Shown: positions 18,681 through 18,923 of the stretch, in pieces
Layout: each line of letters starts with the position of its first letter
Numbering within the stretch: the first letter of the stretch is position 1
Source of the DNA: Halomicronema hongdechloris C2206
GTDB lineage: Bacteria; Cyanobacteriota; Cyanobacteriia; Phormidesmidales; Phormidesmidaceae
Assembly: GCF_002075285.3 (NCBI RefSeq)
Contig: NZ_CP021983.2
Span: 2,220,001-2,252,000 of the forward strand
DNA: 32,000 nt
Direction of reading: 5' to 3'
The notes under the pieces: generated by a model
Told to the model about the DNA's origin: nothing
The model's database searches: none
Seen by the model: the letters and a program-made list of their open reading frames with translations, nothing else
Program-made: the position numbers and the translations under genes

Positions 18681-18760
18681 GAAGTAAATGTCTTGGAGGA
18701 GTACACCTATGGCAAGACAACAGCATATCAGTACCTTCGATATACTGGTGAGGCTCTCAA

Positions 18761-18848
18761 TGATGCCTCTGGCGTTGAGCACTGAGCCGCGCGGTATGCT
18801 AAATACCTCGCGTATGGATAACCACAGATGCCGTAAGGCGTTGATGCC
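18761..18848 (+). ncRNA. Degenerate one-unit CRISPR mini-array (psiR1 - 31-nt pseudo-spacer - psiR2); candidate crRNA-like regulatory RNA (CreA/CreR-like)
   Basis: psiR1 (18761-18782) is TGATGCC-TCT-GGCGTTGAGCAC, against consensus TGATGCC-GCAA-GGCGTTGAGCAC. psiR2 (18814-18848) matches the 35-nt consensus at 24/35, with both stem arms intact and loop GTAA. It has the same orientation as the array. Confidence 0.6.
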
Positions 18849-18882
18849 AACTCTCCAAGGGATATCCGAGGAAGTTGGCATC
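18843..18882. other. Perfect 10-bp inverted repeat GATGCCAACT / AGTTGGCATC (20-nt loop containing the palindrome GGATATCC) joining the psiR2 3' end to the putative -35
   Basis: Arms at 18843-18852 and 18873-18882. No U-tract follows on either strand, so it is not a classical terminator. Confidence 0.5.
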
Positions 18883-18923
18883 TCTCAAAAAATAGGGATA
18901 GTATGTGAGCGGCGCGATATAAG
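18875..18923 (+). promoter_or_regulatory. Putative promoter of the HTH-cas8-cas7-cas5 unit, carrying the pseudo-spacer seed match (18906-18920)
   Basis: TTGGCA (18875-18880), 18 nt, TAGTAT (18899-18904); an alternative -10 is TATAAG (18918-18923). TGAGCGGCGCGATAT matches pseudo-spacer positions 1-15 except positions 6 and 12. Confidence 0.4.

Follow-up and report, generated by a model that had tools for sequence, protein, structure and literature searches.

A probable CreR-type mini-array within the type I-MYXAN CRISPR-Cas locus of Halomicronema hongdechloris

We analyzed a stretch of 32,000 nucleotides (nt) of the Halomicronema hongdechloris C2206 genome (contig NZ_CP021983.2; hereafter the window, to which all positions refer unless another record is named) and, within it, a short element that lies between the genes cas3 and cmx8 of a CRISPR-Cas locus. 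The element consists of two degenerate copies of the array repeat, separated by a pseudo-spacer. It is very likely a CreR-type regulatory mini-array of the type I-MYXAN (I-B, Cmx8) system in which it is embedded.

The I-MYXAN locus and the element between cas3 and cmx8

Searches with Pfam and NCBIfam identified a complete type I-MYXAN locus in the window, the Cmx8 protein of which (19206-20876) is 100% identical to a protein of H. hongdechloris C2206. The signature set for this type is present, namely Cmx8, Cas6/Cmx6, Cas5/Cmx5, a DevR-type Cas7 and a Cas4-Cas1 fusion, with NCBIfam E-values of 1.7e-219 (TIGR04413), 3.7e-70 (TIGR02807), 2e-33 (TIGR02586) and 2.5e-22 (TIGR02585), and the Pfam families Cas8b_N and Cas8b_C are matched as well. 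The locus comprises the following features (ORF, open reading frame; HTH, helix-turn-helix; aa, amino acids):

14137-15126, WYL (WYL-WCX) regulator gene, from Pfam
15126-15800, plus strand, cas6/cmx6 (Pfam PF09559, E = 2e-69; TIGR02807, E = 3.7e-70)
15751-18198, cas3
18203-18680, minus strand, brnT toxin gene followed by a small downstream ORF (brnTA pair)
18946-19203, plus strand, small HTH-like ORF of 85 aa, with the Shine-Dalgarno sequence GGAGG at 18936-18940
19206-20876, plus strand, cmx8/cas8b (Pfam, NCBIfam and homology to PDB 8H67/8IP0)
20906-21784, plus strand, cas7, devR-type (Pfam, NCBIfam)
21797-22537, plus strand, cas5/cmx5 (Pfam, NCBIfam)
23086-24768, cas4-cas1 fusion, Cas4 and Cas1 in a single ORF (Pfam)
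24778-25071, cas2
25320-27274, plus strand, canonical CRISPR array of 28 repeats

The orientation of the array is fixed by its last repeats, which decay at its 3' end, and its spacers are 34-40 nt long. The element and its putative target, including the protospacer-adjacent motif (PAM), are arranged as follows:

18741-18746, plus strand, -10 box TATACT of the mini-array, with a predicted transcription start at ~18753
18761-18782, plus strand, psiR1, a truncated repeat reading TGATGCC-TCT-GGCGTTGAGCAC
18783-18813, plus strand, pseudo-spacer of 31 nt, with the seed TGAGCCGCGCGGTAT at 18783-18797
18814-18848, plus strand, psiR2, a degenerate repeat with 24/35 identity to the consensus
18843-18882, plus strand, conserved hairpin TGCCAAC...GTTGGCA, the 3' arm of which carries the downstream -35 box
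18875-18904, plus strand, predicted promoter of the HTH-cmx8-cas7-cas5 unit (-35 TTGGCA at 18875-18880, 18-nt spacer, -10 TAGTAT at 18899-18904)
18903-18905, plus strand, PAM ATG on the non-target strand, overlapping the last two bases of the -10 box
18906-18920, plus strand, target (partial protospacer) TGAGCGGCGCGATAT, covering the predicted +1 region

The sequences and coordinates in the initial annotation of this region, which had been made from the letters alone, all proved correct on re-checking. Local alignment of the 35-nt repeat to both strands returned psiR2 (score 35) and psiR1 (score 29) as the best matches outside the array, followed by an orphan repeat 3' of cas5 (score 28), compared with a maximum of 26 in 40 Markov shuffles of the same sequence. 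Both degenerate repeats thus stand above background and, as had been proposed, both lie on the plus strand, like the array. The hairpin of psiR1 is retained (GATGCC at 18762-18767, loop TCT, GGCGTT at 18771-18776), and its 3' end, TTGAGCAC (18775-18782), is the predicted 8-nt 5' handle of a CRISPR RNA (crRNA). The hairpin of psiR2 (GATGCC-GTAA-GGCGTT, 18827-18842) is likewise intact. Its 3' handle, described before as lost, is indeed absent, but it has been replaced: the end of psiR2 (GATGCC, 18843-18848) is the 5' arm of the conserved hairpin at 18843-18882, which is a probable intrinsic terminator of the mini-array transcript. A 144-nt region of the window folded at z = -5.1 into the psiR1, psiR2 and terminal hairpins.

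An ORF of 171 aa (18688-19203) spans the element, and the initial annotation had pointed out that the region is in an open frame running into the HTH ORF. In eight of eight relatives stop codons interrupt this frame ahead of the HTH ATG, and the homologous proteins measure 84-96 aa; the long ORF is therefore spurious and the mini-array region non-coding. Rfam at its gathering threshold returned no family over 18000-27500, and megablast of 18200-21000 against plasmids gave no match.

Nucleotides 1-15 of the pseudo-spacer match 18906-18920 except at positions 6 and 12 (13/15), and the next nine positions match at 2/9. This seed match, already pointed out in the initial annotation, is unique in the 32 kb on both strands when identity is required at positions 1-5, 7-11 and 13-15, and was found in none of 300 shuffles. 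A relaxed search (positions 1-11, one mismatch allowed) detected no second PAM-flanked site in the window. As the flanks of the spacer are unrelated to those of the target, the match is not a duplication. The predicted promoter on which the target lies, TTGGCA-18-TAGTAT, was recovered independently by a promoter scan.

The identity of the PAM follows from the family to which the effector belongs. The large subunit of the Synechocystis sp. PCC 6714 Cascade (PDB 8H67/8IP0), deposited as 'Type I-MYXAN ... Cmx8', is a homologue of the window's Cmx8 (E = 3.5e-123), and this complex is the only solved I-B Cascade. Its optimal PAM is 5'-AYG-3', with ATG performing best, and ATG was used both in the cryo-electron microscopy structure and in genome editing (Lu et al., PMC11096372). 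The window target therefore carries the experimentally determined PAM of the family in the correct orientation. In the same complex the crRNA follows a 5+1 pattern, in which the sixth of the 6 nt bound by each Cas7b is flipped out (Lu et al., PMC11096372), and both mismatches in the window, at 6 and 12, fall on positions unable to pair in this pattern.

Related cassettes and covariation of spacer and target

We found eight related cassettes, nine with that of the window, at loci designated L069, L070, L071/72, L073, L075, L077, L078 and L055. They keep the full layout of -10 box, psiR1, seed, psiR2, hairpin, -35 box, TAGTATG and target. The gene order in L069, L070, L071/72 and L078 is that of the window (cas6, cas3, brnA and brnT on the minus strand, intergenic region, small ORF, cmx8), and that of L073 differs in lacking brnTA. 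The contigs of L075 and L077 are short and hold the cassette and cmx8 only. In L055, which was found by a pattern scan of metagenomes, the cassette sits between the WYL gene and cas6. At a further locus, L074, the small ORF directly follows cas3, and no mini-array was found in the 1.9 kb of sequence available. The cassette and brnTA are independent modules, because each occurs without the other (brnTA alone in L001, the cassette alone in L073 and L055).

The signals of the mini-array were conserved across these cassettes, which span 55-88% identity of the HTH protein. A TATA(C/A/G)T hexamer is located exactly 14 nt upstream of the (T/A)GATGCC of psiR1 in eight of the nine, the same spacing as that of the predicted -10 box TATACT in the window, which had been suggested as a possible mini-array promoter. 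The sequence GGCGTTGAGCA in psiR1 and the psiR2 core ACC-A-AGATGCC..GGCG are invariant in 9/9. Both boxes of the downstream promoter are conserved in the nine-cassette alignment, as is a TA..ATG motif in which the -10 box and the PAM are fused. The terminal hairpin comprises 10 pairs in the RNAalifold consensus, several with compensatory changes and with both arms altered in L055, and in most relatives it is followed by a T-run (ATTTT).

An alignment of orthologous loci had been suggested as a test of the seed match, and it revealed compensatory changes in spacer and target. Across the relatives the seed is either conserved or co-varies with the target, and the 3' part of the pseudo-spacer diverges. 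In L077, positions 8-9 have changed from CG to TA in spacer and target alike, and in L073 position 7 has changed from G to A in both. L055 has a wholly different seed, TAGACCTCCATCTAC, which matches an ATG-flanked target, TAGACATCCAAATAC..., with identity through nt 21. Positions 6 and 12 drift freely, position 6 being C, T or A in the spacer and G or A in the target. Counted over 13 loci (the nine cassettes and L005, L010, L012 and L017), 19 of the 26 cells for positions 6 and 12 are mismatched, compared with 6 of the 169 for the other seed positions.

These data also bear on the question of whether a protein alone could control the locus. The WYL regulator encoded at 14137-15126, the HTH-like protein or both might bind TGCCAAC...GTTGGCA, with the mini-array RNA a by-product (a Cas6 decoy, for instance, or a terminator structure). 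Indeed, the -35 box falls within this inverted repeat, the outer 7-8 bp of which are conserved in sequence, and the first gene of the regulated unit is HTH-like. Such a model, however, leaves both the PAM-flanked seed match and the covariation unexplained; the compensatory changes in the hairpin arms of L055 fit an RNA structure and not a protein operator, and the spacer-target logic is unchanged in lineages that lack the HTH gene or the inverted repeat. We therefore regard regulation by protein alone as highly improbable, although it could act as an additional layer of control over an RNA-guided one.

Several other features of the cassettes were observed. The psiR1 hairpin carries a stem-extending insertion of 14-25 nt in L070, L071, L073, L078 and L079 (for example GATGCC-TCTAGCC..GGCTCTT-GGCGTT), which leaves the stem base and the handle intact; the window, L069, L075, L077 and L055 have a 3-nt loop instead. 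The pseudo-spacer can pair with itself (18790-18813), seed nt ~8-12 (GCGCG) with its 3' end (CGCGT). These five pairs are kept in most of the nine cassettes according to RNAalifold, and the motif CGCGT/CGTGT, although not part of the target match, is conserved; the fold could have arisen by chance, the seed being palindromic and rich in CG, or it could reflect a constraint that acts on the RNA when free. Finally, a near-perfect palindrome, CAGCATATC-N9-GATATACTG (18721-18747), lies between the start of brnT (18680, minus strand) and psiR1 and overlaps the mini-array -10 box. It is conserved in L069 and L075, not in L070, L071 and L078, and may be the operator of a divergent brnTA promoter, coupling both promoters.

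Mini-arrays in other I-MYXAN lineages and the Synechocystis transcript

We also scanned 31 genome loci encoding Cmx8 relatives and three plasmid records, which brought the number of independent I-MYXAN lineages with mini-arrays to 11: the window clade, L055, L005 (Lyngbya confervoides), L010, L012, L016, L017 (Pyrinomonadaceae), L018 (Obscuribacterales), plasmid pSYLB of Synechocystis 6714, Cylindrospermopsis curvispora and Nostoc sp. CENA543. Nearly all of the further mini-arrays are located between the WYL regulator and cas6. Their spacers are mutually unrelated among lineages, and each has a target 85-140 nt from the mini-array, on either strand. A scan of metagenomes with the psiR1 tri-loop pattern retrieved 37 stretches, among which L041/L055 and L053 (identical to L010) were the only true mini-arrays; most of the rest were ordinary arrays or had matched by chance in GC-rich coding DNA.

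ATG flanks the target in 11/11 lineages, for which the probability by chance is ~2e-20 at the ATG frequency of the window (1.6%). Spacer and protospacer are identical in 11/11 lineages at positions 1-5, 7 and 10, in 10/11 at positions 8, 9 and 11 and in 8/11 at positions 16 and 17. Identity falls to 2/11 at position 6 and 4/11 at position 12, counts that are biased because the targets of five lineages were found by criteria leaving these two positions free. It falls to 2/11 at position 18 as well, and since positions 16-18 formed part of no search criterion, this dip is an unbiased confirmation of the 6-nt periodicity.

One of these mini-arrays, that of Synechocystis 6714, is the sole member of the cassette family with transcript data. 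Differential RNA sequencing of this strain under ten conditions (Kopf et al., 2015, PMC5386190) defined a transcriptional unit on pSYLB, TU6041, at 41118-41245 on the plus strand, which was classified as type 'n' (non-coding), with an alternative start at 41165 and a mean of 19,447 reads (Table S1 of that study). The adjacent upstream unit TU6039, which contains the WYL regulator, ends at 41117 and has a mean of 1,166 reads (Kopf et al., 2015, PMC5386190). The coordinates of Table S1 and of the sequence agree, because the 3' untranslated region of TU6039 ends 22 nt after the end of the WYL coding sequence at 41095 in NZ_CP007544.1.

TU6041 coincides with the I-MYXAN mini-array of Synechocystis 6714 (L079 4048-4175, corresponding to pSYLB 41118-41245). 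Its transcription start is an A, 6 nt after TACTAT, and it ends just past psiR2, 12 nt before the PAM of the target. Position 41165, the alternative 5' end, falls on the first T of TTGAGCAC and precedes the pseudo-spacer by exactly 8 nt, as expected if Cas6 cleavage were to yield an 8-nt 5' handle, and thus appears to support such processing. The seed reads ATAAG.G.GGTATCGG, and the ATG-flanked target (L079 4190-4206), with mismatches at positions 6 and 8, follows the handle at a distance of 88 nt and lies upstream of a small ORF, hicBA and cas6. A literature search found no paper that interprets TU6041 as a CRISPR-derived regulator.

Together, these data decide a question raised by the degeneracy of the repeats, namely whether the element is a decaying, functionless array remnant whose 13/15 match to the target arose by chance or as a duplication artefact. 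Repeats are recombinogenic, a second orphan repeat without a target lies after cas5, and the element is absent from the close relative L001, all of which speak for a remnant. Against this stand the absence of any match in the 300 shuffles and the unrelated flanks of spacer and target, the conservation of the cassette with compensatory changes, the 11 independent spacer-target pairs with their common PAM and 6-nt mismatch periodicity, and the abundant transcription of the Synechocystis 6714 ortholog. The comparative data effectively refute a remnant, an origin that we consider extremely improbable.

The genes placed behind the target differ among lineages. In the window clade the cassette is located between cas3 and cmx8, with cas6 and cas3 upstream of the inverted brnTA pair and hence not part of the regulated unit. 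The promoter under control in other lineages lies ahead of cas6, and therefore the whole interference operon would be regulated. In the window cas6 starts (15126) on the last base of the WYL-WCX regulator gene, leaving no intergenic gap, and in most relatives it is this interval between WYL regulator and cas6 that the mini-array and target promoter occupy. Where a lineage lacks the HTH-like gene, the ORF that comes first after the target encodes a different small protein of 50-78 aa (L005 4549-4731; L010 2401-2553; L079 4292-4489; L081 2551-2787). Several of these proteins are coiled-coil-like with an ENQQL-type motif, and Synechocystis 6714 additionally has hicBA. For the small ORF behind the Nostoc CENA543 mini-array, homology to the 85-aa protein of the window could not be shown. 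Among distant Cmx8 loci, including those of myxobacteria (L019, L020, L022-L024, L030 and L031), no repeat-like element above background was detected upstream of cas8 or cas6, and a link to DevTRS autoregulation in Myxococcus xanthus, which we had considered, found no support in these loci.

Proposed autorepression, known systems and neighbouring genes

Based on these analyses, we propose that the mini-array would be transcribed from its own promoter (-10 box at 18741-18746) as far as the hairpin at 18843-18882, and that Cas6 would cut at the bases of the psiR1 and psiR2 hairpins. This would release a crRNA-like RNA of ~66 nt (18775-18840), comprising the 8-nt 5' handle UUGAGCAC, the 31-nt pseudo-spacer and the psiR2 hairpin, to be loaded into Cascade (Cmx8, Cas7, Cas5, Cas6 and Cas11). 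The complex would recognize the ATG PAM (18903-18905) and form an R-loop of ~15 bp over 18906-18920, with positions 6 and 12 flipped out and unpaired. The -10 box and the +1 region are covered by the PAM and protospacer, so that bound Cascade would block RNA polymerase at the promoter that serves the HTH-like ORF, cmx8, cas7 and cas5, and because the R-loop would be too short to license Cas3, the locus would be repressed and not cut. In Halomicronema the Cascade backbone genes alone would be controlled, not cas6 or cas3. Canonical crRNAs from the 28-repeat array would compete for the same proteins, and repression should therefore relax with rising crRNA load or upon inhibition of Cascade.

The Synechocystis 6714 data appear to lend indirect experimental support to the transcription and processing steps. 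Binding, blocked initiation and the lack of self-cleavage are postulated from the behaviour of CreA/CreR and I-F mini-array guides together with the sequence evidence. For Halomicronema itself, we infer all of these, that is, transcription, processing, Cascade binding, repression and the absence of cleavage, and this counts against a CreR-type mini-array, as do several other observations. The proteome supplement of the Halomicronema genome paper contains no entries for these locus tags. L001, the Cmx8 of which is 89% identical, has brnTA and neither mini-array nor small ORF, and most of the 31 genome loci are without a mini-array, so that the element is not universal. The pseudo-spacer measures 31 nt compared with 34-40 nt for the array spacers, the U-tract after the hairpin at 18843-18882 is poor in the window, and the counts at positions 6 and 12 carry the bias described above. 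The WYL regulator and the HTH-like protein might also control the same promoters and share in repression.

Autorepression guided by CreA or CreR has been shown for I-B (Haloarcula), I-E and V-A systems, and creA-like elements have been listed for I-B, I-C, I-D, I-E, I-F and I-U (Liu et al., bioRxiv 10.1101/2023.03.10.532045). Mini-arrays were reported in 18% of 1,243 I-B loci, with I-B targets at the cas6 promoter, and in I-D loci the mini-array is separated from the effector genes by toxin-antitoxin or regulator cargo (Shmakov et al., 2023, PMC10120712). Like the CreR mini-CRISPRs of Liu et al., the element described here is degenerate, lies inside the cas locus, partially matches a PAM-flanked site in a cas promoter, has no toxin, and is predicted to serve an autorepression that senses crRNA load and anti-CRISPRs. 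Unlike them, it belongs to a Cmx8 (I-MYXAN) Cascade, its ATG PAM is fused to the -10 box, its function is inferred, and the genes under its putative control are cmx8, cas7, cas5 and a small HTH-like gene, not cas6 and cas3. With the mini-arrays of Shmakov et al. it shares two repeat-like units, the distal one degenerate, and a seed with the cognate PAM in a cas promoter. Targeting of the cas6 promoter, as in their I-B loci, is common to L005, L010, L012, L055 and Synechocystis 6714, whereas the cassette of the Halomicronema clade lies between cas3 and cmx8 and not upstream of cas6. The mini-array of the window resembles TU6041 in belonging to an I-MYXAN system downstream of a WYL regulator and in its ATG-flanked target; the two differ in that their spacers are unrelated, the TU6041 target lies upstream of a small ORF, hicBA and cas6, and the psiR1 hairpin of TU6041 is expanded. 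A natural non-canonical guide with partial complementarity, through which the effector represses its own (cas9) promoter, is also found in type II-A as tracr-L, the long-form tracrRNA, which differs in belonging to class 2 and in its RNA origin and single-protein effector.

CreA of the Haloarcula hispanica I-B system is likewise a mini-CRISPR RNA, encoded between cas6 and cas8, whose seed pairing directs Cascade and which also represses Pcas8. It differs in being paired with the toxic RNA CreT, no gene for which is found here, and in its Cas8b subfamily and PAM. The haloarchaeal PAM is TTC. An addiction module after this model, in which the mini-array RNA acts as antitoxin by silencing a toxin (the HTH-like protein or the product of an unrecognized neighbour), so that loss of Cascade kills or arrests the cell, would accord with the small non-Cas gene that is first behind the target and travels with the mini-array, with the hicBA pair inside the regulated unit of Synechocystis 6714, with the adjacent brnTA pair in the window and with the toxin-antitoxin and regulator cargo behind mini-arrays described by Shmakov et al. 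(PMC10120712). However, no CreT-like small RNA gene or mini-ORF is present, only ~25 nt separating the target from the Shine-Dalgarno sequence of the conserved 85-aa ORF; this ORF looks like a DNA-binding HTH, stops 2 nt before the cmx8 start and in L074 directly follows cas3, with no mini-array in the available 1.9 kb. The brnTA pair lies on the opposite strand at a distance of >220 nt from the target and is separable from the cassette. We thus consider an addiction module very improbable. The initial annotation had proposed a CreA/CreR-like circuit: its CreR half, an autorepressor, is supported by the PAM, the promoter overlap, the covariation, the independent lineages and the ortholog transcript, and its CreA (CreTA) half is not, since there is no CreT-like gene at the target and brnTA is not the target.

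At the sequence level all defining features of the CreR-type class are present, and the element is a member of this known class. The principle of autorepression is no surprise to a specialist, and the comparative evidence is unusually clean. The earlier statement that no such element had been described for a MYXAN-type or cyanobacterial type I system holds insofar as our literature search found no paper that names Cmx8 or I-MYXAN in this connection, and the text of Shmakov et al. (2023, PMC10120712) makes no mention of cyanobacteria or the MYXAN subgroup; as a claim of novelty it goes too far, as Shmakov et al. and Liu et al. already report I-B and I-D mini-arrays. New points are the Cmx8/I-MYXAN subgroup, a PAM that is fused with the -10 box, a small, conserved, HTH-like gene at the head of the regulated unit, a cassette that has moved as a whole and the link to an unexplained non-coding RNA of a model strain.

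RNA-guided Cas autorepression would thereby extend to the Cmx8 (I-MYXAN) branch of I-B, a branch common among cyanobacteria and present in Acidobacteriota and Melainabacteria-like genomes as well. From sequence alone, the 11 independent guide-target pairs display the ATG PAM, a seed of ~15-17 nt and unpaired positions 6, 12 and 18. The proposal would explain TU6041, an abundant unannotated plasmid non-coding RNA, and suggests a natural design rule for CRISPR interference with Cmx8 Cascade, in which guides of ~15 nt would bind and not cut. Synechocystis sp. PCC 6714 is genetically tractable, its Cascade has been purified, solved by cryo-electron microscopy and used in genome editing, and the RNA is already present in differential RNA sequencing data, so that the model is testable at once.

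The 85-aa protein has eight homologues in a collection of 5.8 billion proteins, all placeable ones encoded directly upstream of cmx8. HTH_17 matches eight of the nine family members, below the Pfam threshold (best E = 2.5e-5), and an AlphaFold2 model (mean predicted local distance difference test score 77.7) comprises a helix, a strand, a helix-helix unit and a three-stranded sheet, which is compatible with a winged HTH. Foldseek returned no significant PDB fold match, and no NCBIfam or PHROG family was found. Judging from the model and the profile matches, the protein is probably a winged HTH of the HTH_17-like kind. In a speculative extension, which we think unlikely, the mini-array, target promoter and HTH-like gene would form a portable sensor cassette, with the HTH-like protein as the output of Cascade occupancy. 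The cassette does change place: L055 has it upstream of cas6 and the Halomicronema clade between cas3 and cmx8, with or without brnTA. If such a sensor existed, titration of Cascade by crRNAs or its disabling by an anti-CRISPR would derepress the HTH-like protein, which would launch a second response (for example, brnTA or other defence genes), amounting to an RNA-guided anti-anti-CRISPR alarm with a protein transducer.

Further observations concern the region downstream of cas5. An 81-aa ORF directly 3' of cas5 (22544-22789) had no Pfam, NCBIfam or PHROG match; in L069 its place is taken by a small ORF of 78 aa, and in Synechocystis 6714 by one that encodes a hypothetical protein (L079 11389-11601). 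The orphan degenerate repeat, AAACCACCGATGCCGTTAGGCGTT, lies between cas5 and cas4-cas1 (22866-22935), with its 3' handle replaced by the T-run TTTTTCTTTT, and comes after the motif GAACCTTGAAAACTGAATA, a sequence similar to the leader end of the main array, ACCTTGCAAAAC (~25272). The window was found to contain no target of this unit, and the reading of 22868-22930 as a second crRNA-like unit was therefore rejected; the sequence is better read as an orphan leader with one decayed repeat. The repeat and the leader-like motif occur at the same position in many relatives (L069, L071, L004, L009 and others), with small real arrays there in L002 and L009, and the orphan repeat is probably a terminator or a Cas6 site between the interference and adaptation modules. 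Within the main array, four consecutive spacer-repeat units are exactly duplicated (25745-26029 and 26389-26673, offset 644 nt), the spacers of the duplicated block being ATATAGCG..., TCTTTCAAC..., TCCGTGCC... and TTTATCTCC....

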